In this document: positions 9,275 to 52,246 of the stretch, one piece after another
Numbering within the stretch: position 1 is the stretch's first letter
Layout: each line of letters begins with the position of its first letter
Virus record (IMG/VR): IMGVR_UViG_3300048591_000212
Length of the DNA: 64,000 nucleotides
Origin: a virus
Taxonomy: Duplodnaviria > Heunggongvirae > Uroviricota > Caudoviricetes
Reading direction: 5' to 3' (one strand)
The notes under the pieces: model-generated
Databases searched by the model: none
What the model was told of the DNA's origin: nothing
What the model saw: the letters and a program-made list of their open reading frames with translations, nothing else
Position numbers and translations under genes: made by a program

Positions 9275-9311
9275 TTTCTTTTTTGATTCTCCCTCTCAGG
9301 TATTTATGATA

Positions 9312-12300: not shown

Positions 12301-13391
12301 TCCAATTCGTCAGACACCGTTCCGTCATTCCAGACCAGATTCAATTTTAGTGGAGTCTTAGCGAGAGTCCTCAGCCAAACCGAAAACGAATATCTCTTAT
12401 CTTCAAGAAATTCTACTTCCTGTCGAATTAATCTGTCTGAACCAGAAGAGTTGACAATACGATTTGCCGTAAAGGTTCCGTCTGGGGCCAAAGCAAAATT
12501 GGCGGCAACAGTTGCATTTGACTTCACCCATGCCGCATTTGAAAAATCTTCAGACCAAATAAGAAAATTCTGGTCAAAAAGATTCTCATTGTTCCCAGAC
12601 TGAATACCAGAAGACGAGCCATAAAGAATATTGTAGGCCGGAATATTCTGGTCGGTATAGATTTTATTGGAGACCGACTCTTCAATATCGGGCCACCGAA
12701 GAGAAAATTCAATTTCTGATGAATTGTACAGTCTTCTGTTCAATTCAATTACAATATTCAGAATTGATTCAATGGTAGAGATAATGGCACGAGTTCTTTC
12801 GGTGTCCTCAATCTCGGCCTTGAATTTTCCGAACATCTTCATGCCAGCCGGATGAAGAATCTTGGAGACAATATCCCGATATTCGGAGATCACCTTTTCG
12901 GAAATGATCTCATAGGAAAATTGTTGCCAGTAATTCGAGTCATGAATCTTGTAGTCTTCTGAAACCTTTCCCTTGACCGAATCCGAAAGAGTCAGAACCT
13001 TGGTGTGAGGAATAAAAAATTCGATGTCCTCATTATAGAGAATTTTGAAGAGAAACTTATAGGAGGCATTGTTTCCCTTATTCAGAAAAAAGTCTCTGGA
13101 GTGCTTGATGAACAGTTTCTTGTTTCCTAGAATATTCTGGGGAATTCCATGCAGAAACTTGGAGAAGAAATACTTTCGAAAATCCGAGAAGTTATCATTC
13201 GAAAAAACCTCGTCCACATCGAAACCAGATTCAATATTCTTGATGAAGTATTCGGTGCCTTTGGTTTCTTCCATCCATTCATAGTAGGTCTGCATGAACA
13301 GAATGAAAAGAGATTCCCCGGAGTCCTGAGCATAGAGTTCTTGAACAAAGGCCGGAATCTGTTCTGGAATTAGAATTGAGGTTTTCTTCAT
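9312..13391 (-). CDS. large structural protein (1359 aa) with three repeated carbohydrate-binding-module-like segments
   Basis: Repeated segments FSNAAWVKSNATV / ITKNSWVRTNVDV / FSVANWIKSNVTLT each followed by a jelly-roll-like block; occupies the position expected for a gp7-like protein or fibre. Confidence 0.7.
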   Translation of the reverse strand: MKKTSILIPEQIPAFVQELYAQDSGESLFILFMQTYYEWMEETKGTEYFIKNIESGFDVDEVFSNDNFSDFRKYFFSKFLHGIPQNILGNKKLFIKHSRDFFLNKGNNASYKFLFKILYNEDIEFFIPHTKVLTLSDSVKGKVSEDYKIHDSNYWQQFSYEIISEKVISEYRDIVSKILHPAGMKMFGKFKAEIEDTERTRAIISTIESILNIVIELNRRLYNSSEIEFSLRWPDIEESVSNKIYTDQNIPAYNILYGSSSGIQSGNNENLFDQNFLIWSEDFSNAAWVKSNATVAANFALAPDGTFTANRIVNSSGSDRLIRQEVEFLEDKRYSFSVWLRTLAKTPLKLNLVWNDGTVSDELEVIATAEWQRFSFEFMPENTATGNIYIHSHPDEESAEHSFLAWGAQLSREIMLPYVKTEAFSSGKTNLIIDSADITKNSWVRTNVDVEHTNEYDEVLENNSTAGSIYSILQRVNGITSTGNYVLSTYLQKQGSAQWVRLYVQYSNSGYFVCWFDLENGVKGTENGCAGTIEDAGNGFYRCTIESTAFVSSVSFTEIVPYIEIRSVGADNGTTKTGSAWVDGFRIYGTQFFRKSLHQRDVEYLRADSSVNYSTVVSKINLKPLGLSFPTDTLNGFNIHVFDGKENLLTNSELFSVANWIKSNVTLTDDDETSPTGTGNATKVVCNNSTSSQSITQALNWSAPESSDGGFYVGSVYVLAGSLTEVKLLLQHSGVSFIRYLFDLDTQTVTYDGGDISATWKDHGATIEDMGGGWLRCSVYGYGLLDSSVKEFVIVPSENGGQGVAGDGSKFFHIWGAQVSRSEKNIYTVTEYNPYISNRNYGGKILKFENNGIFLTVYVDGHFPNRFDNTMEYIISKSTKFENGVMRNSLSESSTNLDLNESDVIGKNLLVSSNGFYRNALNTSPFNFSLEMSSLESNTTLVSLNEPDPAGGNSANLISFDDASSYRYKRFTYVMPPIGDIIGIKHTVSVWLWSPNKTKIGIRLANGTTGEADDSFVTIDLTNKPTRYLLSRTFGNSSESIDFGLENRASILGGSALDTGDVYVWNLELLSGDEIENTTNLNSGWRKKNVTCSQSDNINSPYSISNEYSIYETVEDGEHYLEQGVPGFSAGRTYNFSGFMKSLGNPAVDFYVIHIGEGTNASLVRATISGTPQINNVIGPNLSGAQLTDVGDDWYRISFNYTPSEDVVDMRFRVALLLDSSTASYTGNTSRGIALWNLRVSEDSQINYSELEGKEIEIISGVGRGQTNVVSKFFGYDNFVPSSYQIYDDIRNLCIFENDWNVIPNHTSVYKVKRKDYSSFFDSAMFDVNDYIQDYYIDEDDIVARMKKIRTEIDTNLKY

Positions 13392-13471
13392 TAGAGATTA
13401 TTTATTTTCGCTGTCCAGTAAATGTTGTAGTTTATCTTTTCTAACATAATATGTGTTACCGTCCGGTCTTT

Positions 13472-14011
13472 CTACCATAGCTCCATTCGACCCAACACTA
13501 TATATGACACCTTTACCGTATTCATCATGAGTATATTCTTTCCCAATGAGAACATTTTATATTTTCGAAAATCGTCCTTGACTGCATCCGGTCTATACTT
13601 AGTCCAAAATTCATAGCCGTCATCAGAAAGAACGGAAGAGGGGTAAAGTTGTTGGCCTATATGTTTTTCGATGTGGTGATAGAGTTGGTATGCAACACCT
13701 TTTCCTCTATATTCTGGGTTTACAACAGACTTGAACATTGACGGTTTATCGTGTGCATGATTAATATCCGTTTTCATCCAAACCGCCGCACCAGCCACCC
13801 TTCCTTTGTAATATGCCTTAAATGGTTTTGGATCTTTTGGGTGTGGTCGTATACTTACTTTTATATGGTGTGGTTTCAGAATCAATTCTTCGTCCACACT
13901 AGATTCGAAAATGTCCTCTTCTTCAAAACCATATTCTTTCTTCAGTTTTTCGAGGTAATCTAAACCAGTTGGCTCTGAAGTGTTCTCTAATATATGTCTT
14001 AAATGGTTCAT
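13472..14011 (-). CDS. GNAT-family acetyltransferase-like protein with N-terminal MNHLRHILE peptide
   Basis: Motif-A-like YRGKGVAYQLY; N-terminus shared with the two upstream paralogs; start overlaps upstream stop (TAATG). Confidence 0.6.
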   Translation of the reverse strand: MNHLRHILENTSEPTGLDYLEKLKKEYGFEEEDIFESSVDEELILKPHHIKVSIRPHPKDPKPFKAYYKGRVAGAAVWMKTDINHAHDKPSMFKSVVNPEYRGKGVAYQLYHHIEKHIGQQLYPSSVLSDDGYEFWTKYRPDAVKDDFRKYKMFSLGKNILMMNTVKVSYIVLGRMELW

Positions 14012-15078
14012 TAATAGTAACTCCGAGAACTTCTATTTGTCGCCAACCATTCTATGTGCATTGCCTTTGGCGATGGATTTTTTATGTATTTGTAAACCTT
14101 ATAATCTTTGGAAACGGCAACAATTTGGGCTTTCTCTGTTGGATTCTCTATAAATCTAATGGCAGAAGGTTCATCATTAACTGCTTCCACTTGAACGTCA
14201 TTGCTCGGATTTTGAATATATTTAATCGAAAATCCGTTTCGTTTGACCGCTTCCAATTTCACTGCCTCTGTTGGATTTCTAATTAGACTAATCGACATTC
14301 CTTTTTTTATTGTTTCCATTTGTAGTTCTTCGGTGGGATTTGGAACAATATTTATTGCCATATACTTTTTGTTTTTCGGAATAAATGTAGAGAATATGTA
14401 ATCGAGGATATAAGGATGTGTGTCATTCAAAACATCAGGATCGATATCATTGTCCGCTTCATCCTTCAGGTCTGGTGGTGCCAATAGTCCAGTCACATAA
14501 GAAAGCTGATATTTTTCGCCAATACGATTCTTTCTTTTTGGAATAAAAATTACCAATTCATCAAACTCTTCTTCTCCTGCATATTCCACAAACTTATTGT
14601 CATTTCTGGCTGCGGTACACCATCGAGTTCCCTGTCCAAAGTAACAGGCAGAATCTTTATCCAGAATAGAAATAACTTTCATGTTTTCGTCATCCAGAAG
14701 AATCTTATATTTTCCTTTATTCGTTTCTTTTTTTTGTTCTGAAGTATCATAATCATTCAGAATTTTTTCGAGATCATCCAGAGTTCTAATTCTTCCGATA
14801 TCGGAGTGCTCTGGTTTCAATTTGTTTCTTTTCTTTAGGAGGATATATTTCTCTAAGAAAACTTTTCCTTTTGATACCAAATCTTCCACTTTAGTCCCGC
14901 GCTGGAATGATCTAACCATCCAAGACACATAACCCTTATTTTTCGATGGATCAATTTCTTCCATCTTGCTCCAGAGTTCATCCTTGGTGATATTTTCCTG
15001 TTCCAGTCTGGCATCCAATTCTGGACCAAATCCGGCCTTAGTTTTTGATTCTGATAATATATGTCTTAAATAGTTCAT
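14011..15078 (-). CDS. MNYLRHIL-family protein (355 aa); conserved Cys/Trp motif and C-terminal DUF4116-like tandem repeats
   Basis: Paralog of 16988..17977; motif ILDKDSACYFGQGTRWCTAARN; repeats IxNP(S/T)Exxq(l/v)xAV x5; ATGA overlap with gp6-like stop. Confidence 0.65.
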   Translation of the reverse strand: MNYLRHILSESKTKAGFGPELDARLEQENITKDELWSKMEEIDPSKNKGYVSWMVRSFQRGTKVEDLVSKGKVFLEKYILLKKRNKLKPEHSDIGRIRTLDDLEKILNDYDTSEQKKETNKGKYKILLDDENMKVISILDKDSACYFGQGTRWCTAARNDNKFVEYAGEEEFDELVIFIPKRKNRIGEKYQLSYVTGLLAPPDLKDEADNDIDPDVLNDTHPYILDYIFSTFIPKNKKYMAINIVPNPTEELQMETIKKGMSISLIRNPTEAVKLEAVKRNGFSIKYIQNPSNDVQVEAVNDEPSAIRFIENPTEKAQIVAVSKDYKVYKYIKNPSPKAMHIEWLATNRSSRSYY

Positions 15079-16907
15079 ATAATCTCGATCTGGGAGTCTA
15101 CTGAGATATCATCTTCGGAAATTGTCAGAATAGTATTCTGAAATGATCTTACATCAAACGTGGCTGGTTCTACCGTGATGACCAATTTGTCTCCAACATA
15201 CAGACTATTTATGTCGATGTTGTCGATATTTCCTCGTCCAGAATTATAGTTAATCATTCCCACTCCCGGCCTTAGAATTCTTTCTCCGGTTACGGTAGTA
15301 TTGTACAGATCAATATTTCCTTCACCGTCGTCTCTGAAGAATAGATTATAGTTATCTTCCTGCGGTAATGTTGAATCATTAATCGTGAATTTGTTGCTCA
15401 CTAGGGTTCCCGGCATAACCGAATTCACAAAATTGATCTCAATAAAGGTCGGATCAATAAAGGAAATATCGAATTCCTTTTCCAGCTTAATGCGAGTCAC
15501 GTTTGACAGAATAGCCGCATCAACCGAGTCAATCTCCTTGACCAGCTTCGAGAATCTCAGGACCGAATCGAACGAGTTTATGCTGTTCTCACAGAAGCCC
15601 AGAATAGCCGTCCGAACATTTGTTTTCAGAAAATTCGTGCTGTCATTTGTCAGATTTGAGTTATACTTAAATACCGTGTCAATTAGAACATTTACATAGG
15701 ACGGATCAACGAATTCTGGAATGATCGTAACCAGACTTCGGCTTTGAATAGCCGTTCGAATATTTGATTTCTCAAATTCCGTCAAAGTCAAATTACCCTT
15801 TGGCTTGATTGAGATGAAGACTTTTCCGTAGAATGGAGGATCATTATCCTGTCCCCCCCAGACCTTCATTGAATCAATATTCGGATAGACTGACTCCACC
15901 TGAAAAATAAAGTCGTCTTCGGTTACGGTTCGGTACTGAGAGGCATAGTGTCTCGGAGCCTTCAAACGAATCGACTCAATGGACTCAGCAGCCGAGCCAC
16001 CATCAATTCTCTCCAGAAGAGTAATTCCGGCATTGATTTGGGAATTGGTTAGCTGTAGGGAATCCAGACCTGATTCCGAAAAGGCGATATTCTGGGAACC
16101 ATTTACTTCATTTGTGTCTGTGACCAGATAATTAACGACCACGACATTTCCCGGTTCGGGAGCCTTACCAATAACATTGTCTCCGAAGTAGATTTCCATG
16201 AAGCCATTATTCTTTTCCTGAATAAAGAATACCGTGGAAGTCGATTCAATATCCACGAAGTTTAGGGCATTGGTGTACTTTGTAAAATTGTTGGCTGTTG
16301 GCGTGGCATAGACCAGAACCTCAATTGTGGCGGCATCAATATTCTGATTTTCAAGAATGAATCTGCGAGTTTCAAGAGTAGTTGAATTGATTGAAAATCT
16401 CTTTTGGACAAATGCTCCCTGAGTCAGAGTAATATTTGAAAAAGAGTAGGTAAAGGAATTTGAATCCGTAGGAACTCTGGTTGCGGTATAGTCCTGAATG
16501 GGATAAAACGAATAGCTGGTATTATCCACAATCGTCTCGAATCTGTCGGTTCTCTTTAGAAGAATCTGGTTTGGGGCAACCTGAGTATCCGGCACCGTGA
16601 GGGAAATATTGATATTGGCCTTGGCTCCGACAGCCGAGCGAGGAGTATAACCTAAAGATTTCGCATGAGAGATAACCGAATCCCTAAGAATAGCCGTGTC
16701 CACAAACATCTCATTTGCTACCATGTTCAGGTAGTAGGCATTGTATTGAGTATTGTAAGAAAGAAGATTAATTAGAACCGAAAGAGACGATCCCTCGAAA
16801 TTATAGTCAGAGAATTCTGAGCTATTGTTTCGAAGATAATTCTTGAAGTTTTCTTTTATCTGGGCGAAGTCCAGACCAGCAATTATTAGATTGGTATTTG
16901 TTGACAT
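15075..16907 (-). CDS. baseplate wedge protein, gp6-like (Baseplate_J family)
   Basis: N-terminus FAQIKENFKNYLRNNSSEFSDYNFEGSSLSVLINLLSYNTQYNAYYLN matches the conserved T4 gp6 N-terminal pattern; 610 aa. Confidence 0.8.
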   Translation of the reverse strand: MSTNTNLIIAGLDFAQIKENFKNYLRNNSSEFSDYNFEGSSLSVLINLLSYNTQYNAYYLNMVANEMFVDTAILRDSVISHAKSLGYTPRSAVGAKANINISLTVPDTQVAPNQILLKRTDRFETIVDNTSYSFYPIQDYTATRVPTDSNSFTYSFSNITLTQGAFVQKRFSINSTTLETRRFILENQNIDAATIEVLVYATPTANNFTKYTNALNFVDIESTSTVFFIQEKNNGFMEIYFGDNVIGKAPEPGNVVVVNYLVTDTNEVNGSQNIAFSESGLDSLQLTNSQINAGITLLERIDGGSAAESIESIRLKAPRHYASQYRTVTEDDFIFQVESVYPNIDSMKVWGGQDNDPPFYGKVFISIKPKGNLTLTEFEKSNIRTAIQSRSLVTIIPEFVDPSYVNVLIDTVFKYNSNLTNDSTNFLKTNVRTAILGFCENSINSFDSVLRFSKLVKEIDSVDAAILSNVTRIKLEKEFDISFIDPTFIEINFVNSVMPGTLVSNKFTINDSTLPQEDNYNLFFRDDGEGNIDLYNTTVTGERILRPGVGMINYNSGRGNIDNIDINSLYVGDKLVITVEPATFDVRSFQNTILTISEDDISVDSQIEII

Positions 16908-16914
16908 ACTTAGT

Positions 16915-16922
16915 TATTTATA
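16915..16922 (-). promoter_or_regulatory. T4-late-type promoter box TATAAATA 7 nt upstream of gp6-like ATG
   Basis: Minus strand TATAAATAactaagtATG; 80-nt intergenic region lacks an SD. Confidence 0.45.
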
Positions 16923-16987
16923 ATCATATCCAATCTGTTTCATGATTCCATAAAACTGTTCTGGAGTTTTCTGTTTTTTTGAGGACA

Positions 16988-17977
16988 TCATTTACCAGCC
17001 GCCTTTCCTTTTAATTCTCTTATTAGTTTCTTTACGTTTTCGGTTGGATTTTTGATTAACGAAAATGCATGAATGTTTTCTCGAACAGCAGCCAACTGTA
17101 ATTTTTCAGGTGGATTTATAATATCTGAAATTGCCATTCCATCCGTTTCAACGGCAATTAATTGTAATTTCTCTGATGGATTTTGAATATGCTTAAATGA
17201 TATAGGGCTTTCCCGAACAGCAGCTATTTGTTCATCCTCCGTCGCGTTACTATCAAACCCTATGAAATTAAGTCTTCCTCTTTCTGGAATTGTCGGAAGA
17301 ATATATCTTTCAATATATTTTCGTGCGAGTTCTGCATTAGTAGCTTTCTCGTCTTTTTCGTTATTAAACTGAATATCTTCATACCAATGAGAAAAATACA
17401 ACTGATACTTTTCTCCGGGGTATTTCGGTTTTTTTGGAATAAAAACAAAGAGTCTTCCTTCTTCGCTTGAATAGTAATCATACATATTATTGTTTTTAGC
17501 TGCTGTACACCATTGAGTTCCTCGACCGTAATAGCAAGCAGAATCTTTGTCCAGAATTTCAATTACTCTCATATTCGAATCATTAACTAATTCTATATAT
17601 TCTCCTTTGTTCGTGGGAACCGAAGATGGTCCTTCTGGATAATCCGTTCTTAGTATGGATTCCAGATCAGTTAACTTTTGAAAACGTCCAATATCAGAAT
17701 GTTCTGGTTTCAGTTTCTTCTTCAATTTCAATTGTTCAAATCGTTCAAGAGAATCCTTGCCTCTTGAAAGCAAGTCTTCAATCTTGGAGCCGAATTGAAA
17801 TGCCTTCACTAGCCAGTTAACATACTGTTTATTTTTGGTTGGATCGGCTTCTTCCATTTTTTTCCAAAGTTCGTCTTTCGAAATATTTTCTTGTTCTAGG
17901 CGGGCATCCATCTTGGAACCAAATCCGGCCTGAGATTTTGTTCTGTCGTATTCGAATAGGTGTCTTAAATAATTCAT
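16988..17977 (-). CDS. MNYLRHLFE-family protein (329 aa), paralog of 14011..15078
   Basis: Shared N-terminal 60-aa domain, motif ILDKDSACYYGRGTQWCTAAKN, C-terminal IxNPxE repeats; ATGA overlap with gp25-like stop. Confidence 0.65.
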   Translation of the reverse strand: MNYLRHLFEYDRTKSQAGFGSKMDARLEQENISKDELWKKMEEADPTKNKQYVNWLVKAFQFGSKIEDLLSRGKDSLERFEQLKLKKKLKPEHSDIGRFQKLTDLESILRTDYPEGPSSVPTNKGEYIELVNDSNMRVIEILDKDSACYYGRGTQWCTAAKNNNMYDYYSSEEGRLFVFIPKKPKYPGEKYQLYFSHWYEDIQFNNEKDEKATNAELARKYIERYILPTIPERGRLNFIGFDSNATEDEQIAAVRESPISFKHIQNPSEKLQLIAVETDGMAISDIINPPEKLQLAAVRENIHAFSLIKNPTENVKKLIRELKGKAAGK

Positions 17978-18387
17978 CTCACTCTCTCTAAAATAAGATT
18001 AAAGGAAACCAACTGATCTGGAATATTCTCAAAGTAATACACAATCTTAATATCATAGGCATTGGTATTCGGAATTGTTACTTCGACATCAATCACGCTC
18101 ACTCTGGGTTCGAAGTTCTCGATTGTCTCGATGATATAATTTTTCAGAAGAACCCGGTTATATGGAGTATCATTTTCAAAGAGAAAGTTTCGAACATTCG
18201 AGCCAATTGACGGCTGAAATGGCACATCAAAAAAATTCATCAGGACCAGATTCTTGATGGCCTTCTTAATGGCCTCCTGATTGGTCTTTTTGAAGATGTC
18301 TCCGGTTACTGGGTTTTTAGTAAATCCCAAATCAAAGTCCTTATAGACTACCGGAGTTGTTGGAGTTTTTTCTTTTTTTAGGGACAT
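17974..18387 (-). CDS. baseplate wedge protein, gp25-like (GPW_gp25 lysozyme-like fold)
   Basis: 137 aa; conserved pattern ...RNFLFEN...ENFEPRVSVIDVEV... parallels T4 gp25 (LFEN, EPRI motifs). Confidence 0.75.
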   Translation of the reverse strand: MSLKKEKTPTTPVVYKDFDLGFTKNPVTGDIFKKTNQEAIKKAIKNLVLMNFFDVPFQPSIGSNVRNFLFENDTPYNRVLLKNYIIETIENFEPRVSVIDVEVTIPNTNAYDIKIVYYFENIPDQLVSFNLILERVR

Positions 18388-18390
18388 TTG

Positions 18391-19644
18391 TTATTTCAGT
18401 TCTTCCTTTACCGCCACATAAGGTCCATAGGGTCTTGGATATTGTCTGGATTTGGTGGAGTCATCAGGCTTATTTATCATAACTCCTTGCGGCTGAGGAG
18501 GTTTCGGAATTACCACACCAAGCCCGCCAGCAACCGAGGATCTTAGGGACATATCGATGCCGGGATTAGAAGTAACAGAAGTTCCTTTTAGGGCCACAAT
18601 CTTCGCGGCCCCCACTGTAGTATTATTTCCAGACTTGATTTCTACGTCCTCTTCTCCATAAAGTTTCAGCTTTCCCTTGGCAGAAATCTCCACATCCTTT
18701 CCAGCAGTCAGAGTACAATTTTCTCCAACAGAAATTGTGGCATTTCCCTTAATCTGAACATTACAATTATTATTGACGATGACATTAAATGGTCCATCAA
18801 TTGTTAGATTAAATCGATTCTGAACATATTCATACTTTTCTTCCAGAGTAATCTTGTACGAATTACCAACAATCTTTTCAACCTTTACTCCATCTGGATA
18901 AATTTCTGAGAATGTTCCTGAACGATGATACTGGTGAAGCCTCTCGACGCCGCGAGTATCATCTATCTCAAAAATATGGCCCGATTCCGATTCCAGAACA
19001 TGATTATAGGGATAGGAAGAATCATAAGGAGTTTCCGGCTCATCCCAGACATCTCCTTCGGCAGTCGGTACGGCAAATACTCTGGAACCCTTTTTAATCT
19101 GAACAATGGTGTCCTGAATTTTTTCATCATTTCGGGCCAGACGATTCGTGTCCGGTTCTCCAATAATATTTCCAAATGGATGATTCTGCCGAGGCCACAA
19201 TTCTCCTGTCTCTGGAGAAGGATCTTCTTCGGTTAAAATTGCTCCGGTGCCGTCTTCTCGGTATTCTTTCTTTTTCAATTTGCGAGGATTTCTGGATAAT
19301 TCTTTTCGAGGATCAAGAAAGCCCTCTCGAATATTCCGAGGAAAGGCATACTCGGAAGGAATTCCACCAATCGTTCCAAGAATCATTGGCTCCTGAGAAT
19401 CGACTCCATCCCTAAAAAAACCGACAACCCATGATCCTTCTACCGGACCCATTGGAGTCTGACCGATTCCATTTACCGAAGAACTCTGAACCGGAGAAAC
19501 AGGCCAAGCCCAAGGAAGTTCATCTGTTGGAATAAACCTTTTATTTTCGGTATGAGAACCAAGAACTCTTACCCGGCACCGACCCAACATTAAAGGATCA
19601 AGCCGACTTTCTACAACACCAATAAAGAATTTCCATTCAATCAT
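18391..19644 (-). CDS. baseplate central spike, gp5-like or VgrG-like (OB-fold N-domain, beta-helix C-terminus)
   Basis: N-terminus GRCRVRVLGSHTENKRFIPTDELPWAWP...GSWVVGFFRDGDSQEPMILGTIGG typical of gp5 or gp27-associated spike; C-terminal repetitive beta-helix segment. Confidence 0.75.
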   Translation of the reverse strand: MIEWKFFIGVVESRLDPLMLGRCRVRVLGSHTENKRFIPTDELPWAWPVSPVQSSSVNGIGQTPMGPVEGSWVVGFFRDGVDSQEPMILGTIGGIPSEYAFPRNIREGFLDPRKELSRNPRKLKKKEYREDGTGAILTEEDPSPETGELWPRQNHPFGNIIGEPDTNRLARNDEKIQDTIVQIKKGSRVFAVPTAEGDVWDEPETPYDSSYPYNHVLESESGHIFEIDDTRGVERLHQYHRSGTFSEIYPDGVKVEKIVGNSYKITLEEKYEYVQNRFNLTIDGPFNVIVNNNCNVQIKGNATISVGENCTLTAGKDVEISAKGKLKLYGEEDVEIKSGNNTTVGAAKIVALKGTSVTSNPGIDMSLRSSVAGGLGVVIPKPPQPQGVMINKPDDSTKSRQYPRPYGPYVAVKEELK

Positions 19645-19645: not shown

Positions 19646-20992
19646 TTAGGAATAAATCTCCGATTCCATAAGTGGATTCACAAAAAGAGTGTCCTTGGAA
19701 AGTTCCAGAGTCATCGAATATACACCAAAATTCGGAGCCTCGGTTGTGATGATGTGCCGAACACAGGTAATCAAAAACTTACCTCTGTAGTATTTATCCA
19801 AATATTCATTAGAATTCACGTCTGCCGAATCCTTTGGAGAAGTAATCTCCAGATTAATCACGTCCCCGACACTAAGAGAAGGATCTGCCGGAATAGTCAC
19901 ATTGATTTTCACATTATTCAATTGCTGAATCTGGGATTTTCGGAAAGGAATAAATCTTGAGGAATCCTTGTCCTGAAAGGTTCCGTCATAAAGAGAATTA
20001 TTGTAGGTATAGACTGTCCTGTTTGATTCTGGTTTTTGTGTAAACTTCGTGGTCAGTTTTGATACCAGTCGCCCTTCATCAGAAAGATGTCTCAGTTTTG
20101 GATAGGTTTCGAGATAATTAAATGAAATCTCATCGGTTTTCTTATTCAAAATATCCCACTGAAGAATATGATTGGCATACATTCCAGTCTTGATGTTATC
20201 GATGATATTGAAGGTCTTCGAAAAGGAATAGGCATTAATTCTTTCGGCTGAGTCGTCGGCATTTGGAGTTCGGGCCAAATCAATGATATTTGCAATCGAA
20301 GTTTTTAGAGTCTTCACTGAAGGCTTTTCGTATAGTTTTTCCAATGGCACGAAATGGAATGTGGACTGAAGGGCCGAACGAAAATTGATCGTTTCAAAGA
20401 AAAGATAAGAAGCACCCAGATAATTTGGAGAAATGGACTTGGAGGCCAGCCAATTAATCGCGGCAAATGGATTTAGGTGAGGGATGATGATATTCTTTGG
20501 TCTGTCTGTCTCCTCAAAATTAATTCTCTTTCGAGTCTTGAGATCATTAAAAAGAATGTCTGCCGTGATTGCCGAATACTTCTTGTCTCGGTAGGATTTT
20601 GAAATTCTAGTAGTCTGGTCCTCAAAGAATTCTGGAGTCACTAGATTCAAGACAGTGGCCTGTTTCTTCGTGTTCACCAAAAATCGGTTACTGATGTTAT
20701 AGACATGAAAGACCAGCTTCAGAGTCTTTCGATTTTTCTTTTCCTGAATGGTAATATGAATTTCTTCATTTCCGATAATCGGGCCGACTGTGTGAAACTT
20801 ATCAATTGGTGTCGAGGCGATATTATGAATCTCATTCAGAATCAAAGTTCCGTGAATACAATTAAGAAAAATGTCCTCAACCAATTCAAATGATGAATAA
20901 TACTCCAGAAGATCAAGCCACTGAGGTTCTGATGTTCTTCGGTGCGACTTCAGCCTTAATTCCAAAATTTCTAGTCCTTGGGATATTGCCAT
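19646..20992 (-). CDS. baseplate hub-like structural protein (448 aa), hypothetical
   Basis: Immediately upstream of and coupled to the spike gene (position of a gp27-like hub); no motif recognised. Confidence 0.5.
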   Translation of the reverse strand: MAISQGLEILELRLKSHRRTSEPQWLDLLEYYSSFELVEDIFLNCIHGTLILNEIHNIASTPIDKFHTVGPIIGNEEIHITIQEKKNRKTLKLVFHVYNISNRFLVNTKKQATVLNLVTPEFFEDQTTRISKSYRDKKYSAITADILFNDLKTRKRINFEETDRPKNIIIPHLNPFAAINWLASKSISPNYLGASYLFFETINFRSALQSTFHFVPLEKLYEKPSVKTLKTSIANIIDLARTPNADDSAERINAYSFSKTFNIIDNIKTGMYANHILQWDILNKKTDEISFNYLETYPKLRHLSDEGRLVSKLTTKFTQKPESNRTVYTYNNSLYDGTFQDKDSSRFIPFRKSQIQQLNNVKINVTIPADPSLSVGDVINLEITSPKDSADVNSNEYLDKYYRGKFLITCVRHIITTEAPNFGVYSMTLELSKDTLFVNPLMESEIYS

Positions 20993-20997: not shown

Positions 20998-21780
20998 TTA
21001 GATACTCTTTAGCTCATTCTTGAAAGCATTTACGAAATCCTGAAGCAATTCCGGCTTCAGAACCCGAATGATTCTTTTATTCTGATTCTCGATTACTTCT
21101 TCGTCATACATTGATCGGCGGAATCTTCTCTGATCCTCGGCAATGAGGGACCATGTATCGATATCAGTTTCCATAAATTCCTTTTCGTCCACATGATGCT
21201 TCATGTAATATTTCACGAATGGAGGATGAATTTTCGCCACATCATTTTGCCCATCAGCCAGTTCATCTTCCAGAATTACCGAAAAGGAATAATTTGAAAT
21301 ATAATCTATTGTGTAGATTCCATTATACTTATTGCTGGATGAAAACCAGACGAAGGCTCGGCGTTGGTCCATAAACCCATGAGTATCAATTGAGGTAATC
21401 GTGCAAACATTTCCAGAAATTACATAAGAGGCATCAAATGGGTCCGAGAAGTTCTGAATATCCTGAAGAGATCCACCATACTTGTTGATGACATATTTCT
21501 GAAATTCTCTGGAATTCAAAGGCAAGTCCCATAAAGGATCTATTAGAGAATTCATATAGAGAATAATCCAGTAGTAATATGGGCTACCATAGAGTTTGTC
21601 ACTGACTGTTTCCAGTGTCTCAAATTCATTCATGGCATATTCATAATAATTTGAGGAATCAATGACTGAATCAGTCCGAAGGACGACTCTCTTGAATATA
21701 TCCGAAACAACTGTTTTCTTGCTGGCCCCCGGATTCAGTAGATCAGGATAGAGTAGATATTGTAATTCTGAAAAATACAT
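20998..21780 (-). CDS. hypothetical virion or baseplate assembly protein (260 aa)
   Basis: In late operon, TAATG overlap with upstream gene. Confidence 0.5.
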   Translation of the reverse strand: MYFSELQYLLYPDLLNPGASKKTVVSDIFKRVVLRTDSVIDSSNYYEYAMNEFETLETVSDKLYGSPYYYWIILYMNSLIDPLWDLPLNSREFQKYVINKYGGSLQDIQNFSDPFDASYVISGNVCTITSIDTHGFMDQRRAFVWFSSSNKYNGIYTIDYISNYSFSVILEDELADGQNDVAKIHPPFVKYYMKHHVDEKEFMETDIDTWSLIAEDQRRFRRSMYDEEVIENQNKRIIRVLKPELLQDFVNAFKNELKSI

Positions 21781-22721
21781 TAGAATCCTCGGTTAATTGA
21801 CTCTTTCGTGTGAACCACGGTTTCTCTAAATTTCAGGGCCAGATCGATCTCAACTGGCTGACCGTCAGTAAAGGTATTAAATTGATTCTTCTGACCAGAG
21901 TAATTCACATTCATGTCTTCCAAATAGCACGAAGAAATCTTATTCAACATGACATTTTCAACGGCCTTTCCGCCTTGGGATCGCCAGTAGGTAATCACGA
22001 ACAGAGAAGGAAACTTAAATTCCTTTCCATTGACAGCCAATTCTGGGTGCATCTGAAATCGAAACTCTTTCAGAATATTCTGAATTGTTCGGGACTCGTT
22101 TTGGTTTCTGGGAACAAGCCGGAAATTATAGTCAAAGGTTCTCATTTTCATATTCTTGAATAGCTGTTCGGAAACAGGATTATAGGCCGATCCTCTTTTT
22201 CCTAATTGCAGGGCAAAGATTTCGGTTGCACTCAAGGCACCAGCTACGCTCAATAGGGCCGACTTTGCTATGTCTCCTGATCGCTGCCACAGATGACTCA
22301 GGGACTCCTTTCCCACTCCCAACAAATCGACTCCTTCGGCCTGAATATAGTCTCTCATAAGACCCTGATCAATTTGCTGTAAATCTGCTGAATAGTTCAC
22401 CTTTACTTCATCTGGCATGTACAGAATAATATTTGAATCAGAAACTCTTCGATAGGTTCCTTGTGAAGACAGCCGAGGCAGAGTATACTGGTCAACAATT
22501 CGGGAATTTACTCCGTCATCAATGTCCACCACGGAACCGTCTGTGTTCCGAATTGTCCGAACCGAAGTGAACTGTTCGGTATCCGAAGCCAGCCGAACAG
22601 CCGAGAATATCATAAAATGAAAGGCATCATTATCTTTATTATTGTTGGTGCCAGTTTCTCGGACATAGGTATTTTGTCCCAAGTCATTTGGGAACACATG
22701 GGTTCTTGGTGCTGTTGCCAT
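21780..22721 (-). CDS. hypothetical late protein (314 aa; start re-assigned to MATAPRTHVFPNDLG)
   Basis: Track ORF 21780..22820 trimmed: the internal ATG at ~22721 lies 7 nt downstream of a T4-late-type TATAAATA box with no SD (predicted leaderless). Confidence 0.55.
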   Translation of the reverse strand: MATAPRTHVFPNDLGQNTYVRETGTNNNKDNDAFHFMIFSAVRLASDTEQFTSVRTIRNTDGSVVDIDDGVNSRIVDQYTLPRLSSQGTYRRVSDSNIILYMPDEVKVNYSADLQQIDQGLMRDYIQAEGVDLLGVGKESLSHLWQRSGDIAKSALLSVAGALSATEIFALQLGKRGSAYNPVSEQLFKNMKMRTFDYNFRLVPRNQNESRTIQNILKEFRFQMHPELAVNGKEFKFPSLFVITYWRSQGGKAVENVMLNKISSCYLEDMNVNYSGQKNQFNTFTDGQPVEIDLALKFRETVVHTKESINRGF

Positions 22722-22738
22722 ATAAGTATATTTATATG
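22721..22738. promoter_or_regulatory. divergent overlapping late-type promoters: TATAAATA (minus) and TATAAGTA (plus), each 7 nt from an ATG
   Basis: Near-palindrome CATATAAGTATATTTATATG; intergenic distance only 14 nt; no SD on either side. Confidence 0.5.
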
Positions 22739-23206
22739 AGACGAAGAGGCGGCTATATTCAAGGAACATTTCGGCCAAAAAATCCGGCAAAGTACCGAGG
22801 CAATCTGAATAATATAACATTTCGGAGTTCTTGGGAACTTCGTCTTTTTAATTATCTGGACCAGAATTCAAGTGTTCTCGAATGGAATTCCGAAGAGGTT
22901 GTTATTCCATATTTTTTTCCTCTTGATGGAAAATGGCACCGATACTTCGTTGACGCCTATGCAAAATTCCGAACTCGGTCTGGCGAAATTCAGAAATATC
23001 TGATAGAGGTAAAGCCAGAAAAGGAGACTCTGAATCCGGCCCTGAAGCCCAGAAAAAGACGGACAAAGTATTCTCGACTGGAAGAGGAAACCTATGCCAA
23101 AAATTCCTGTAAGTGGAAGGCCGCGACCGAGGCGGCGGAACTAAATGGCATGAAGTTTATTATTCTTACCGAAAATGAACTCTATAACAAGAAGAGACAT
23201 AAATAA
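22736..23206 (+). CDS. conserved small basic late protein (156 aa), possible head or tail completion-type protein
   Basis: Track ORF 22688..23206 trimmed to ATG ~22736, which lies 7 nt after a TATAAGTA late-like box; motifs NITFRSSWELRLFNYL, WHRYFVDAYAKF; it reminds me of a T4-like phage protein family I cannot name with confidence. Confidence 0.55.
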   Translation: MRRRGGYIQGTFRPKNPAKYRGNLNNITFRSSWELRLFNYLDQNSSVLEWNSEEVVIPYFFPLDGKWHRYFVDAYAKFRTRSGEIQKYLIEVKPEKETLNPALKPRKRRTKYSRLEEETYAKNSCKWKAATEAAELNGMKFIILTENELYNKKRHK

Positions 23207-23211: not shown

Positions 23212-23823
23212 ATGCCGATCAATACACCGAACCCAGAAAGACGTGGTGGGTTCTCAGATTTCATCGCAAATATTAATAAGACCTCCTATGCTACCAAATA
23301 CAAGTACGAGGTTCAGTTTCTCTTTCCAGAATATTTTCGGACCAATTTTCTGACAAATGAGTCATTTCGATTTTTTAAGTATTCGGATTTCAAGACTGTA
23401 GACGAAATAAATCGATTTCGGTGTGTCGAGGCAGCATTTCCGGCACGAGTATTTTCGACAATTGATTATAGGTACAATGGTCCGGTTCGTAAGCAACCAT
23501 TCAATATTCAATTTGATGACGTGTCCTTTACGATTTTATGTAGTGAGGATCACCGAGAGAGATTTCTTTTTGAGGAATACTTTCAATTGGCCTATGACAG
23601 TAAGTATAATCTAAGATACAATGACGACATTAAATGTCCTGCCATCAAGATTTTCCAATTGGATCATACCGAAGAATACAAGACCCTAGAGATTGAACTG
23701 ATGGACTGTATGCCAGTTTCTCTGGAGTCCATGCCGCTGTCCTATTCAATTCAGAATGAACCACAGACCTTTCAGGTTAGATTTAATTTCAGAGATTACC
23801 AAACAAAGGAGCTTAATTATTAA
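23212..23823 (+). CDS. hypothetical baseplate or tail assembly protein (203 aa; gp26-like by size and position)
   Basis: ATG 6 nt after CATAAATA late-like box embedded in upstream gene end. Confidence 0.5.
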   Translation: MPINTPNPERRGGFSDFIANINKTSYATKYKYEVQFLFPEYFRTNFLTNESFRFFKYSDFKTVDEINRFRCVEAAFPARVFSTIDYRYNGPVRKQPFNIQFDDVSFTILCSEDHRERFLFEEYFQLAYDSKYNLRYNDDIKCPAIKIFQLDHTEEYKTLEIELMDCMPVSLESMPLSYSIQNEPQTFQVRFNFRDYQTKELNY

Positions 23824-23828: not shown

Positions 23829-24605
23829 ATGGCAAAGTTACCAAAACTACCAATTCCAAAGTATGACGTGATTCTTCCTTCCACTGGAAAAAAGATCGCT
23901 GTTCGGCCCTATTTGGCTAAGGAACAGATCATTCTTCTAATGGCTCAGGAATCCAATGACAGATCAGATATTATTTCCGCGATTAAGCAGGTAGTAAATA
24001 ACTGTATTCTGGACGACAGCGTGGACATTGATTCTCTACCGAGTTTCGATGTCGAATATCTTTTCCTGAAACTTCGGGGAATTTCTGTTAATCAGCAGAT
24101 CGAGCTAACCTTTTCCTGCACAAAGGAAATTAAGGGAAAGAAGTGTACCGGAACATTCGATCATGTGATTCAGATTGAGAATCTGGATGTAGATAAGAAG
24201 GTAAAGAAGGGAGATAATGTTATCAAATTGGTGGACGATTTCTCCATGATTATGAAGTATCCGACCTTTGATATTTTGGAATCTAATGCCAAATTCTTTC
24301 AGGGTCTTCTGGAATCCGAAGAGGAACAATCTAAAAAGGATCGCCTGTTTGGAACTTCCTTCAATATTATCTATGACTGTACCGAGTCCATCGTAAAAGG
24401 AAATGAAATTTATGATGTGCATAATGACTATACGAAGGAAGAATTTGGAGAATTTCTTGAAGGAATGACCGACGAAGTCTTTGAAAAGGTTCTTGGATTC
24501 TTCGATTCGATGCCCAAATTGAATTATGTAATTGAATTTAAGTGTCCTAAGTGCGGGGCCGAAGAGAGCATCGTTTTGAATTCTCTGCCGGATTTTTTCG
24601 GCTAG
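23829..24605 (+). CDS. hypothetical baseplate or tail assembly protein (258 aa; gp51-like by size and position) with C-terminal Cys4 zinc ribbon
   Basis: C-terminus KCPKCGAEESIVLNSLPDFFG; precedes tape measure. Confidence 0.5.
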   Translation: MAKLPKLPIPKYDVILPSTGKKIAVRPYLAKEQIILLMAQESNDRSDIISAIKQVVNNCILDDSVDIDSLPSFDVEYLFLKLRGISVNQQIELTFSCTKEIKGKKCTGTFDHVIQIENLDVDKKVKKGDNVIKLVDDFSMIMKYPTFDILESNAKFFQGLLESEEEQSKKDRLFGTSFNIIYDCTESIVKGNEIYDVHNDYTKEEFGEFLEGMTDEVFEKVLGFFDSMPKLNYVIEFKCPKCGAEESIVLNSLPDFFG

Positions 24606-24799: not shown

Positions 24800-27487
24800 A
24801 TGGCAGCAAAACTAATTAAAAGTGGTATCGCAGGAGCGGGGTCAATTGGAAAGGCAACCAAAGACCCCATGCTCTCTACATTGGCCTCTCTTTTCGAAGA
24901 ATTAGTTACCGAAATTGGAACTGATCGAAGAGAAAGAAAAAGAAAGAAATCAAACTTATTTGACTCGAATACTACTAGTGTTGTCACCAAGCCAAAGAAG
25001 TCCAAAAAAGTTCAGAGTCCAGCCGTTTCTTCTGTGGCGAAAAGATCCGCAACAACTCAGGCTGCTGTTTCCACCACACATATAGAAAATTCCTTTTCTG
25101 GAATGATTGCCACTCTTGGGGATATGTTCAAACAAAGTCTCCGAAGAGAACCCAAAGAAGAAAAGAAAAAGCGTTCGGACGGAAAATCCCGGTCATATTA
25201 TTCCGACAAAAGAGACAAGGATAAACAGCCGTCTGGTGCCTTGCTTCTTCGCCTAAACCGAAAGGTCTCTCGGACAAATGAATTATTAACCCAGATGAAT
25301 AAGAACATGGTTTCTGGTTTTAGGCTACTTCATGAGACCATGAAGGATTGTTGTGCTGGAAATTCAAATGGTGAGAAGATGATGGAACTGAAGAATTCCA
25401 TTGTGAATCTCAGCCGAAAGACTGCTATCTCCAAAAAGTCTGGTAAGCCTCTGGCTGGCGCTGCTCTGACTGCCGTTCTGGATCGGGCCGAGGAAAAAAG
25501 CCGGGATAGAGATTCGGCTATTGCCTCAATGCTGGAATCAATGATCTCAAAGGTTCCAACAAGAGCCGCAAAAAAGTCTGCGTCCAAGAAGAATAAGACT
25601 CTTTCAGAATCAGACCTAATCGAAAAAATCAATCTTCTGAATCGAGAGAAGTATGAGAAAATGTTCTCGGTATTCTTTGACCGAATGAAACTCGGTTTTG
25701 AAAAAACCGTCTCGGCTATTCTTTCCCTGAATAATATGTTTCTGACTAAAGTGGACGAGATTGGCAAAGAGGTCAAAGATCCAATTTTGTCAATGATCTC
25801 AAAATTCATTCCATTTATCTTCGGTACAGTCAAGGCTGCATGGAAGTTTATCTGGGGAATTCCAAAGACTTTGGTTTCAATTAAGGATATTCTGAGGGAC
25901 ACCAACCAGAAAATATCTGAACTAACTAAGAAAATCTCGGACGAAAACGAGCTTATTCGTGAATCAGTAAAGGGGACCAAGAGTGTTCCTTCGGTTCCGG
26001 CTGCTCCGAAAACCTCTGCTGCTAAAGAATCTAAGTCAGAGGGCCGAGGAATTTCTGGAATCGTTGACACTCTTTTGAATATTTTCACCCTAAAGGCTCT
26101 GGCTGGAAGAGGAGGGGCGGTCGTCGGAAAACTCGGAAAGGTACTTCCGTTTTTAGGGAAAATTGCTGGAAGATTGGGTCCGGTCGGAGTAGCCGCTGGC
26201 GTTGGTTATTCTGCCTATGACAAGTACAAGGAAACCGGATCTGTGGGCAAGGCAGCTACTACAGGAGGTTCGGCCTTGGGTGGTGCCATGCTTGGGGCCA
26301 AGATTGGTGCGGCTGGTGGTCCGGTCGGAATTGCTCTTGGAGCAGTGATTGGCGGCATTGCCGGAAACTTCATTGGGGACAAACTGGCCGACAATTTCTC
26401 TTCAATCAAGAAGAATTTTCTATCAATGTGGAATAGTACGTTTTCAGATTCAGCAAATATTCTGGACAAACTGAGTTCCTTAATGAAAGAATCTCTTTCG
26501 GATCTAGTTGAAAAGATGAAGACTATGTGGAATGGAGTGGTGAAAACTTTACCAGTTCCTTCGCTGTTTAAGGAGGGACTATATGTGGAGGAAACCCCGA
26601 AAAAAATTGATGTGTCGCCAGCACAGCAAGAACGAGTTGGGCCGGGAAATGAAATATATAAAGGATTGGCCGGGTCCAATGTAAATCCGGGCAATATTCG
26701 TCAAGGAAAGTCCAAGAAAAAGGACATATTTTTTGGGACAGTCGGTTTCGATGAAAAGGGGTTCAATAAATTTGAAAATGAATTATATGGAATTCGTGCA
26801 ATGTTTAGGCAATTTGAAACATACAAAAAGAGCGGAAAAGAAACTCCTGAACAAATGATTAAGACCTATGCTCCCAAAGCCGACGGAAATAATCTCGAAA
26901 AATACAGAATAAATTTAGAGAAACAAGGCGTTAAGTGGAATAAAAAACTGTCTACTGATCAGGAATTGATACAATTTGCTTCGGCTGTATCTAATGCAGA
27001 AAATTCAACACTACTTCTGGATAGATTCACCCAAGACCAATTACAATCAGTATTAAATTCTGCTAGATTAAATGATATTGCCGCCATTAGAAAATCATTA
27101 GAAAAAGTCGAGAAATCATCCACAAAACCGATACTTTCTTTGAAGCCAGATGGGACGGAATTGTCTTTGGATTCCAAGGAAAAACGGCAGCCGAATAAAG
27201 TGTCGGCCATTCCGAAAAACCTAAACATTAATCCAATCGGCCCGGTCGTTGAAGGACCATTCCTAAATGCCGAATCAGTGATTGCCCGCAATTCTCCAAC
27301 TCCGGTTCTGAGTATGAATCCTCCACCAATCATTGCGCCAACAATGATTAATAACATGAATGGTGGCTCCGGTGGCTCTGATAACTCATTTGGTCCGGTG
27401 GCGTCTCCGAGGTCAGTTGAGAATACCTTCGAAAAGGCTTCTCATGATAGCTTTACCTTATCATTATTCCGAACTCATTTAGCCTAA
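24800..27487 (+). CDS. tail tape measure protein (gp29-like), 895 aa
   Basis: Lys/Glu-rich coiled-coil N-half, Gly-rich segment GAMLGAKIGAAGGPVGIALGAVIGGIAGNFIG, position between assembly proteins and tube-like proteins. Confidence 0.75.
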   Translation: MAAKLIKSGIAGAGSIGKATKDPMLSTLASLFEELVTEIGTDRRERKRKKSNLFDSNTTSVVTKPKKSKKVQSPAVSSVAKRSATTQAAVSTTHIENSFSGMIATLGDMFKQSLRREPKEEKKKRSDGKSRSYYSDKRDKDKQPSGALLLRLNRKVSRTNELLTQMNKNMVSGFRLLHETMKDCCAGNSNGEKMMELKNSIVNLSRKTAISKKSGKPLAGAALTAVLDRAEEKSRDRDSAIASMLESMISKVPTRAAKKSASKKNKTLSESDLIEKINLLNREKYEKMFSVFFDRMKLGFEKTVSAILSLNNMFLTKVDEIGKEVKDPILSMISKFIPFIFGTVKAAWKFIWGIPKTLVSIKDILRDTNQKISELTKKISDENELIRESVKGTKSVPSVPAAPKTSAAKESKSEGRGISGIVDTLLNIFTLKALAGRGGAVVGKLGKVLPFLGKIAGRLGPVGVAAGVGYSAYDKYKETGSVGKAATTGGSALGGAMLGAKIGAAGGPVGIALGAVIGGIAGNFIGDKLADNFSSIKKNFLSMWNSTFSDSANILDKLSSLMKESLSDLVEKMKTMWNGVVKTLPVPSLFKEGLYVEETPKKIDVSPAQQERVGPGNEIYKGLAGSNVNPGNIRQGKSKKKDIFFGTVGFDEKGFNKFENELYGIRAMFRQFETYKKSGKETPEQMIKTYAPKADGNNLEKYRINLEKQGVKWNKKLSTDQELIQFASAVSNAENSTLLLDRFTQDQLQSVLNSARLNDIAAIRKSLEKVEKSSTKPILSLKPDGTELSLDSKEKRQPNKVSAIPKNLNINPIGPVVEGPFLNAESVIARNSPTPVLSMNPPPIIAPTMINNMNGGSGGSDNSFGPVASPRSVENTFEKASHDSFTLSLFRTHLA

Positions 27488-27499
27488 ATACTACAAAAC

Positions 27500-28135
27500 A
27501 TGTTCAATATCTCAAATTTCTTCGCCCAACAAAAACTCTTCGGTATCGCCAGAGCCAATTACTTTGAGGTTTATCTTGGTGGAGTTGGTCTAGTGGATGA
27601 TCTGGTAGCCAAGACATTTTCTCGAATTTACTGCAAGGCGGCGTCCATTCCTTCCATGAATCTGAACTATGTTGAGGTTCCTTTTCGGGGTCTTTTGGTT
27701 ACTTTGCCTACAACTCGATTTTATGATGAATGGCAGGTAACAGTCACCAACGACACGAATTTTGTTCTGAGGACTCGGCTGGAAAAGTGGGTGGAAGAGA
27801 TTAATGGAAAATTCGGTGTGCCGGAAAGAACTGGCCTGAATATTGCGAATATTCTTTCAATTGGAAATAATAATGAACAGGGAGTTGCCGACTTTGGAAG
27901 ACTATTGAAAGATGTATGGATTGTTCAATATGCAAATGATCGATTCATTCGGCCTACGGCAACCTACTTTCTTCGGGACGCCTTTCCGACAACGGTTACT
28001 TCGGCTGAGGTAGGATGGGATAATAATGATGCCACTCAGGACTATACGGTGTCCTTTCGGTATCAGTACCTAGAAAGAAAGAGCCTGAACGAATTGCCTT
28101 CGGAAATTCTGAATCAGATAAGGAATCTAGGATGA
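27500..28135 (+). CDS. tail tube-family protein, paralog 1 (gp48/gp54/gp19-like baseplate-tube initiator)
   Basis: Paralogous to next gene (shared ...TY.E W.VT...D......R...W....), directly after tape measure as gp48/gp54 are in T4. Confidence 0.55.
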   Translation: MFNISNFFAQQKLFGIARANYFEVYLGGVGLVDDLVAKTFSRIYCKAASIPSMNLNYVEVPFRGLLVTLPTTRFYDEWQVTVTNDTNFVLRTRLEKWVEEINGKFGVPERTGLNIANILSIGNNNEQGVADFGRLLKDVWIVQYANDRFIRPTATYFLRDAFPTTVTSAEVGWDNNDATQDYTVSFRYQYLERKSLNELPSEILNQIRNLG

Positions 28136-28740
28136 AAGACGGATTTAATTTAGAGAGCTTTCTTGGAGAAATAAAGAAGCATTCTTTCTCGAAGCCATAT
28201 TCATTTCGGGTTTCGATAGAGCCACTTTATTCAGAACATTCTAGTCTGTTGTCCTTGTACACGAAGGCCGCGACAATTCCAACTCATACCAACACGATTA
28301 CTAACCTACCACACAAGGGCCGAATCATGAAGGTGCCGGGAGAGAAAACCTATCCAGAATGGACCTGTACTATTATCTCGGACGAGACACATAAAATTCG
28401 GGAACTATTTGAAGATTGGTCCGACCTTATTAGCAAATCTGGAACGGGATTCAGAGAAGCGAAAAACGAAGGACGGCAAACATTAAATTCAATATATGGA
28501 CCAACAGTGTCGGAAGTATCAAAATATTCCAGCCATTATAGGGATGTGGTGATTGATCAGTTGGGGTCAGACAACACTATAGTCAAGACCTACACTCTAA
28601 GACAGGCGTGGCCCACGGTGATCTCCCAGATGGAATTGAATGCAGAATCTATTTCCAATACTCAGGATCTCACCGTGACCTTTGCCTACCAATACTATAT
28701 TATAGGCCAACCGGATGCGGTCTATTCTTCCATATCTTGA
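28132..28740 (+). CDS. tail tube-family protein, paralog 2
   Basis: ATGA overlap with paralog 1; similar length and motif order. Confidence 0.55.
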   Translation: MKDGFNLESFLGEIKKHSFSKPYSFRVSIEPLYSEHSSLLSLYTKAATIPTHTNTITNLPHKGRIMKVPGEKTYPEWTCTIISDETHKIRELFEDWSDLISKSGTGFREAKNEGRQTLNSIYGPTVSEVSKYSSHYRDVVIDQLGSDNTIVKTYTLRQAWPTVISQMELNAESISNTQDLTVTFAYQYYIIGQPDAVYSSIS

Positions 28741-34534: not shown

Positions 34535-34540
34535 ATAACT

Positions 34541-34569
34541 AGTATAGCACCTTTCTGGAGGATTGTCAA
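34541..34569 (-). promoter_or_regulatory. early promoter TTGACA-N17-TATACT inside track ORF extension, ATG at +7 (leaderless NTase mRNA)
   Basis: Minus strand: TTGACAatcctccagaaaggtgcTATACTagttatATGAGT. Confidence 0.55.
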
Positions 34570-37604: not shown

Positions 37605-37780
37605 CACTTCCCGGCGAGTGCCAACGACGCTCCCAGAGGGGGAAGCGGATGTCTTCTTCCCCCCTTCAGGACAACAGAAGACCGCCCGCTTGTGATCTTC
37701 TGTTCCATCAACTTGTTCTGTGCGATCCGATACTGAATTCGTTCGGCGGGCGTCATCTCGGTGTAGGCTTTGTTCTTCAT
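37605..37780 (-). CDS. small protein (~58 aa), predicted leaderless
   Basis: ATG 6 nt downstream of TATACT of promoter 37787..37815; below track cutoff. Confidence 0.35.
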
Positions 37781-37786
37781 ACTTAT

Positions 37787-38070: not shown

Positions 38071-38076
38071 ACTTAT

Positions 38077-40184: not shown

Positions 40185-40190
40185 GATTAT

Positions 40191-49712: not shown

Positions 49713-49719
49713 ACTTCTA

Positions 49720-52240: not shown

Positions 52241-52246
52241 GTCTAC

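Follow-up and report, generated by a model that had tools for sequence, protein, structure and literature searches.

In a 64,000-nucleotide stretch of viral DNA (IMG/VR record IMGVR_UViG_3300048591_000212), which we will call the window and which comes from an uncultured, distant T4-like myovirus with ~40% GC, the divergent genes for a gp48-like baseplate protein and a gp4-like head protein are separated by just 14 nucleotides (nt). The gap and the two start codons make up a 20-bp element, CATATAAGTATATTTATATG, in which two boxes that resemble the late promoters of T4 face each other. We propose that this element is a bidirectional gp55-type late promoter that has been compacted to the extreme, orthologous to the facing promoters of T4 genes 4 and 53, and we put the probability of this proposal at about 70%. 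The bottom-strand box (TATAAATA) would drive the gp48-like baseplate operon leftward, and the top-strand box (TATAAGTA) would drive the operon that starts with the gp4-like gene rightward.

The initial annotation of this DNA, which was made from the sequence, placed a 20-bp palindrome within positions 22715-22740. The palindrome is there, in imperfect form (18 of its 20 positions are symmetric). On the minus strand, TATAAATA (22736..22729) matches the late consensus exactly and is followed by 7 nt (tacttat) and the ATG of the gp48-like gene at 22721 (MATAPRT...). On the plus strand, TATAAGTA (22721..22728) matches the consensus at 7 of 8 positions, with an A-to-G change at box position 6, and is followed by 7 nt (tatttat) and the ATG of the gp4-like gene at 22736 (MRRRGG...). 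(We will write such spacings as N7.) Both spacings and the 14-nt distance between the start codons (22722-22735, or CAT-ATAAATATACTTAT-ATG) are as first described. The boxes are 0 bp apart, and each also overlaps the start codon of the opposite gene, as had been noted, but by only 1 nt.

In T4, a late promoter is an 8-bp box that spans positions -13 to -6, with its first T at -13, and transcription starts at the sixth nucleotide after the box (PMC2988020). If the same geometry holds here, then the predicted starts are near 22723 for the leftward transcript and near 22734 for the rightward one, each within the opposite box, and both transcripts would begin with 5'-AUAUG. The predicted leader is 0 nt for a spacing of N5, 2 nt for N7, and 6 nt for N11. 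Since N7 gives 2 nt, we use the term "near-leaderless"; the view that these are late-type promoters is supported by their orientation, their conservation, and the homologous pair in T4, but strictly leaderless transcripts are not what this geometry predicts. The shared 14-bp gap would be just what either open complex melts; one polymerase at a time could occupy it, and leftward and rightward transcription would exclude each other.

The facing boxes have a clear precedent. T4 genes 4 and 53 are divergent, with two inverted TATAAATA boxes facing each other; likewise, gp4 and a baseplate operon diverge in the window, and in both phages each box lies within the initially transcribed region of the other. 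The divergent partner of gp4 is gp53 in T4 and gp48 in the window. In Pelagibacter phage Mosig, the facing boxes lie between gp48 and gp4, as they do here. Because T4 and Mosig share the layout, the facing-box architecture is ancestral and was already known. Late boxes also face each other elsewhere in T4 (L081/L094), both between genes 26 and 51 and between inh and segE, which implies that this is a recurrent design in T4 and is not unique to genes 4 and 53. What is new here is that the boxes have no spacer left between them and that both leaders appear to have been lost. In T4, the gap is 47 nt (tggattctccTTATAAATAgataatatATTTATAaacaggagggccc), the boxes are 8 bp apart, and 26 and 28 nt separate them from the ATGs, which have strong Shine-Dalgarno (SD) sequences (AGGAGG and AAGGAGAA), whereas here the ATGs lie 7 nt after the boxes and lack an SD.

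Late transcription in T4 is a textbook system, and its late mRNAs are described as having conventional SD-bearing leaders. We scanned 102 kb of T4, in which the distance from a box to an annotated late-gene start is 14-35 nt. The boxes in the window share with T4 late promoters the 8-bp consensus, the position before virion operons, the recurrence, and the variation at the first position (T/A/C). Variants of the late box (NATAAATA or CTAAATA) are found in cyanophages and vibriophages. The boxes in the window differ from those of T4 in that the predicted leaders are 0-2 nt instead of tens of nucleotides, and in that one box has a G at position 6. The SD-bearing leaders of ~20 nt that are a trait of the facing promoters P4 and P53 of T4 are not seen at this junction, where the canonical geometry gives at most 2 nt. 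In the literature that we could search, we found no report that ties T4-like late promoters to leaderless mRNAs.

To examine conservation, we identified relatives through their homologs of gp48, which gave four further lineages, or five counting the window. In L083 (86% identity for gp48), the gap is 12 nt (CAT-AAATATACTTAT-ATG), with CATAAATA-N7 before gp48 and TATAAGTA-N5 before gp4. In L084/L085 (76%), the gap is 18 nt and contains TATAAATATATTTATA, with TATAAATA-N11 before gp48 and TATAAATA-N7 before gp4. In L254 (42%), the gap is again 12 nt (CAT-ATAAATATATAT-ATG), with TATAAATA-N5 before gp48 and TATATATA-N5 before gp4. In L091 (44%), the gap is 33 nt and contains TATAAATATATTTATA, with TATAAATA-N8 before gp48; its gp4 has a spacing of N25, an AAGAGGA SD, and a TTG start. 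TATAAATATATTTATA, which is found in both L084 and L091, is a perfect 16-bp palindrome made from two boxes. The (T/C)ATAAATA on the gp48 side is kept in L083, L084, L091, and L254, and the box on the gp4 side is TATAAATA in L091 and AATAAGTA in L074. All five aligned gaps have an identical core, ATAAATATA, whereas identity in the flanks averages 60%. The 12-18-nt gaps of the relatives contain nothing but boxes.

Short spacings are conserved at other late genes as well. The box before the tube-like gene at 23212 is kept at N6 in the window, N8 in L084, N5 in L091, and N5 in L254, and the L091 counterpart of the CCTAAATA box before the gene at 27500 is TATAAATA-N8-ATG. The spacing from box to ATG is never below N5. 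This floor is expected for a promoter because, with a shorter spacing, the AUG would be lost from a transcript that starts at the T4 position. Genes at the floor, with a predicted leader of 0 nt, are gp4 of L083, both genes of L254, and 9516 of L091. All of the genes with short spacings, in the window and its relatives, begin with ATG, and the sole relative whose gp4 has a long SD-bearing leader (L091) uses TTG.

We also considered 80 loci from IMG/VR (~50 distinct) whose gp4 is ~50% identical. In these loci, gp4 is again without an SD, and an ATA-rich motif (ATACATA or TATATATA) precedes its ATG by 5-8 nt; for the divergent gp48-like gene, a minus-strand TATAAATA is usually followed by a leader with an SD. 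These resemblances are only suggestive that the ATA-rich motifs are late boxes; gp48 relatives in IMG/VR are 39% identical or less. Two scans of metagenome contigs did not yield any more close relatives.

These spacings depend on the start codons being correct, and the annotated starts of both genes are well supported by their homologs. Homologs of gp48 are 308-314 amino acids long (312-314 as predicted by gene callers for relatives) and have a conserved (H)VFPNDLG motif from about residue 8, and the gp4 protein aligns to PHROG218 from profile position 4. Between close relatives, synonymous-type substitutions appear from about codon 5 onward. The gp48 open reading frame (ORF) remains open for another 33 codons upstream, but a start at 22820 would overlap gp4 by 85 nt, and given the lengths of the homologs and the position of the motif (~8 residues from the Met), we rejected it. 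We also rejected the in-frame GTG at codon 9 of gp48, because this codon is GTC in L084.

The initial annotation reported that neither gene has an SD, and the predicted pairing with the anti-SD sequence bears this out. The duplex energy is +1.5 kcal/mol for gp48 and -1.0 kcal/mol for gp4, as compared to a median of -5.15 for the window and of -3.95 for the late genes. The box-proximal genes are the weakest in the late module, at about 0 to +1.5 kcal/mol, and of the 18 late genes, the five with the weakest pairing are all box-proximal. The lack of an SD is real and is specific to box-proximal genes. There are also SD-less genes within operons (14011-15078, 19646-20992, and 24800-27487), and these have no box. 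In the minimum-free-energy folds of the predicted 5' ends, the start codons are unpaired or weakly paired.

Are these boxes more common than expected by chance? Across the window, ATAARTA-N7-ATG occurs four times, versus 0.32 expected, and none of 100 shuffles had four or more matches. All four matches are at annotated starts of late genes (13391, 16907, 22721, and 22736). Only this spacing-anchored pattern is significant; the box alone is not. Every late intergenic gap in 1-28740 contains a sense-strand (N)ATAAATA or CTAAATA box, and within the late genes, ATAAATA has a sense:antisense ratio of 9:0, versus 112:76 for 7-mers of matched composition. We found no excess of sigma-70-like promoters over shuffles around the gp48/gp4 gap.

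The N7 spacing that had been described for the gp6-like gene does hold there (TATAAATA-actaagt-ATG), but the one described for the gene at 23212 is N6 instead (CATAAATA-agagat-ATG). Two of the other boxes lie beside small ORFs on the minus strand. In 16908-16987, an ORF of 25 codons (MMSSKKQKTPEQFYGIMKQIGYDYK and a stop codon) starts at a TAAATG over the stop codon of the upstream gene and has its own stop codon within the TATAAATA box, 6 nt upstream of the gp6 ATG. In 13392-13471, an ORF of 18 codons (MLEKINYNIYWTAKINNL and a stop codon) ends in a TAATG over the start at 13391. These small ORFs may reflect translational coupling or reinitiation, or they may be coincidental.

A promoter is not the only way to explain a conserved AT-rich box near a start codon. 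The boxes could instead be A/U-rich standby sites or S1-binding sites for SD-independent initiation on longer transcripts or readthrough transcripts. Weak SDs are common among the late genes of the window, the small ORFs that end in or next to the boxes (TAA ... ATG and TAATG) might explain the SD-less starts of gp6 and 13391 by termination and reinitiation, and true leaderless initiation works poorly with a leader of 2-6 nt (PMC8459731). But this explanation is a poor match for gp4, which has no plus-strand gene upstream (within 1-22735) and no promoter-like site, and a transcript that reached gp48 from an upstream start would need to run antisense through the plus-strand operon for ~6 kb. 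The SD-less genes within operons do without a box, and the boxes match the T4 late consensus and keep their orientation at positions orthologous to P4 and P53 of T4. Also, the floor of N5 suits a promoter and would be unexpected for a translational enhancer. Overall, we consider this alternative unlikely for the gp48/gp4 pair, although the small ORFs permit reinitiation at gp6 and 13391. It is less likely still that the palindrome serves chiefly as the operator of a dimeric regulator, such as a DsbA-like protein or a repressor that controls both operons, and that its similarity to late boxes is secondary. T4 DsbA does bind A/T-rich sites that overlap late promoters (PMC2988020), and TATAAATATATTTATA is a perfect palindrome in both L084 and L091. 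However, in the window and in L083, the palindrome is broken (TATAAATATACTTATA), yet each box is kept. The half-sites overlap by 2 bp in L254 and are 8 bp apart in T4, a variation that a rigid dimer would accommodate poorly, and the 8-mer recurs singly, without a palindrome, before other late operons. Two inverted copies of one asymmetric box form a palindrome automatically.

That the junction is just an AT-rich sequence between divergent genes, with no signal function, is the least probable of the alternatives. Short AT-rich intergenic regions are commonplace, and the exact TATAAATA is not enriched across the window (4 matches versus 2.85 expected). But the spacing-specific pattern is enriched by ~12-fold and is found only at the starts of late genes, the core is invariant across lineages whose proteins are as little as 42% identical, and T4 and a pelagiphage share the layout. 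The comparative data make chance an unlikely explanation for the element, and the enrichment and conservation together appear to exclude it for the spacing-specific arrangement.

Besides the lack of enrichment of the exact box, several observations weigh against a compacted late promoter. The promoter activity of the boxes is predicted from their sequences, and the one on the plus strand, with its G at position 6, departs from the consensus and may differ in strength. Among the ORFs of the window that we scanned against PHROGs and Pfam, we did not find homologs of gp55, gp33, or gp45. The predicted 5' ends are free of structure, but shuffled sequences are so to the same extent. The gp6 and 13391 examples permit reinitiation via the upstream small ORFs. 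Finally, leaders of 2 nt (N7) to 6 nt (N11 in L084) would be expected to weaken leaderless translation: in Caulobacter, each additional 5' nucleotide is reported to reduce it by about 2-fold (PMC8459731). The starts may be deliberately weak, for virion proteins that are needed in low copy number, or the real transcription start may be shifted by 1-2 nt.

Since gp55 and gp45 are present in all T4-related genomes (PMC2988020), we infer that a gp55-type sigma factor is encoded outside the window; the late timing, the exact 5' ends, and the mode of translation in our proposal are likewise predictions. As for gp33, the gene order at 62447-63460, which is also seen in L087, is the gp59 loader, a very acidic ORF of 115 amino acids (DDEDDDDLEEEEE...), and gp32. 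The acidic ORF (63113-63460) is near the slot of T4 gene 33, yet it matches no family, and its C-terminus is not obviously of the clamp-binding kind.

If the compacted promoter has the T4 geometry, then an mRNA with no SD and a leader of 0-2 nt would require leaderless-type or SD-independent translation. Leaderless mRNAs are known from the cI gene of phage lambda, as transcribed from PRM, and are abundant in Actinobacteria, Deinococcus, and Caulobacter; classically, the leader is 0 nt. Like these mRNAs, the transcripts that we predict lack an SD and have an AUG start at or next to the 5' end. They differ in that the leader would be 2 nt (0-6 nt across the relatives) and in that the promoter would be of a late type with a phage sigma factor, instead of sigma-70. 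This layout suggests that the host is good at translating leaderless mRNAs.

Some early genes have a similar arrangement with a different type of promoter. We found 6-7 matches to sigma-70-like promoters (TTGACA-N17-TATACT) that lie N6 before an ATG, as compared to 0.18 expected; one of the matches lacks the ATG. A related site at 51985 has a spacing of N9. Since N6 places the +1 position on the A of the ATG, six early-type genes appear to be truly leaderless. Other early genes near them have strong GGAGG SDs. Given the early sites, this phage seems to make general use of leaderless expression. It is conceivable, although we hold this idea only tentatively and think it less likely true than false, that in a poorly-sampled T4-like lineage, the genes at the head of the late operons and several early genes have come to be expressed from leaderless or near-leaderless mRNAs, with late boxes N5-N8 before the ATG and a symmetric shared bubble of 12-18 bp at the gp48/gp4 junction. 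The direction of transcription at this junction would then be set by the strand whose box the late sigma captures, and the orientation of the sliding clamp might bias the choice.

The positions of the boxes, of the early promoter-like sites, and of the surrounding genes are listed in the table. After the gp48-like gene, the leftward operon continues with the gp53-like gene, a 448-amino-acid protein, gp5, gp25, and others. The gp8-like gene is a contrast case, with a box at a longer distance and a conventional SD. The rightward late operon includes three paralogous genes with the tail-tube fold (PHROG45) at 23212-23823, 27500-28135, and 28132-28740. They flank gp26, gp51, and the tape-measure gene, and all three are also present in L091, which is syntenic.

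Table. Late boxes, late genes, early promoter-like sites, and other features of the window (aa, amino acids).
Feature	Position	Strand	Remarks
20-bp element CATATAAGTATATTTATATG	22719..22738	.	both start codons and the 14-nt intergenic gap
Late-type box TATAAATA, gp48-like operon	22729..22736	minus	exact consensus match
Variant late-type box TATAAGTA, gp4-like operon	22721..22728	plus	7/8 consensus match
Box CATAAATA, before tube-like 23212-23823	23198..23205	plus	6 nt before ATG; overlaps gp4 stop codon
Box CCTAAATA, before tube-like 27500-28135	27483..27490	plus	9 nt before gene; overlaps stop of tape-measure-like gene; no SD
Box TATAAATA, before gp6-like gene	16915..16922	minus	N7; span to ATG 16922..16905; at end of 25-codon small ORF
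Box AATAAATA, before 1359-aa baseplate/fibre gene (9312-13391)	13399..13406	minus	N7
Box CATAAATA, before gp8-like gene (7016-9274)	9301..9308	minus	26-nt leader with GGGAG SD
gp48-like baseplate tail-tube cap, 313 aa	21780..22721	minus	PHROG230, E=7.7e-48; identical to 313-aa protein P0001
gp4-like head completion/closure, 156 aa	22736..23206	plus	TnsA-like nuclease fold; PHROG218, E=3.3e-53; PF08722
gp53-like	20998-21780	minus	family profile match
gp5	18391-19644	minus	family profile match
gp25	17974-18387	minus	family profile match
gp6-like	15075-16907	minus	PHROG219
Tail-tube-like	23212-23823	plus	family profile match
gp26	23829-24605	plus	family profile match
Tape-measure-like	24800-27487	plus	by position alone: slot after gp51, as in S-RIM2
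TTGACA-N17-TATACT-N6-ATG sites	34532-34569, 37778-37815, 38068-38105	minus	
TTGACA-N17-TATACT-N6-ATG sites	40182-40219, 49710-49747, 52238-52275	minus	
Nicotinamide phosphoribosyltransferase-like gene, 1127 aa	44918-48301	minus	matches at residues 2-238 and 956-1125
TnpB/IS605-type transposase-like gene, in two ORFs	57776-58345, 58495-58965	minus	N- and C-terminal parts of PHROG506
Eight tRNA genes (Thr, Gln, Arg, Ile, Ser, Val, Cys, Leu)	30914-55145	minus (all)	among early genes

Two other genes in the window have family matches that fall into two parts. The two matches of the 1127-amino-acid protein to nicotinamide phosphoribosyltransferases are split by ~700 amino acids, and the insert has weak matches to Hint/intein-splicing domains and also matches intein-bearing PHROGs, so this gene likely contains one or two inteins. 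The split TnpB-like gene is probably a decayed insertion. Its closest bacterial homolog is from a metagenome-assembled genome of Spirochaetales, and at 52% identity, this is not informative as to the host.

If our proposal is correct, then the gp48/gp4 junction is a natural minimal bidirectional promoter of 16 bp, with two mutually exclusive orientations, which could be used to study the choice of strand and the orientation of the clamp. The sigma factor concerned would read merely a -10 element. If late operons do start 5-8 nt after the TATA box, then gp55-type promoters would couple directly to leaderless-type translation. Gene callers that model only SD-led starts could misplace the starts of such genes, for instance in the gp48 ORF. 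And if the broader idea about this lineage holds, then the translation apparatus of the host, perhaps as modified by the phage, would handle SD-less 5'-terminal AUGs efficiently throughout infection.

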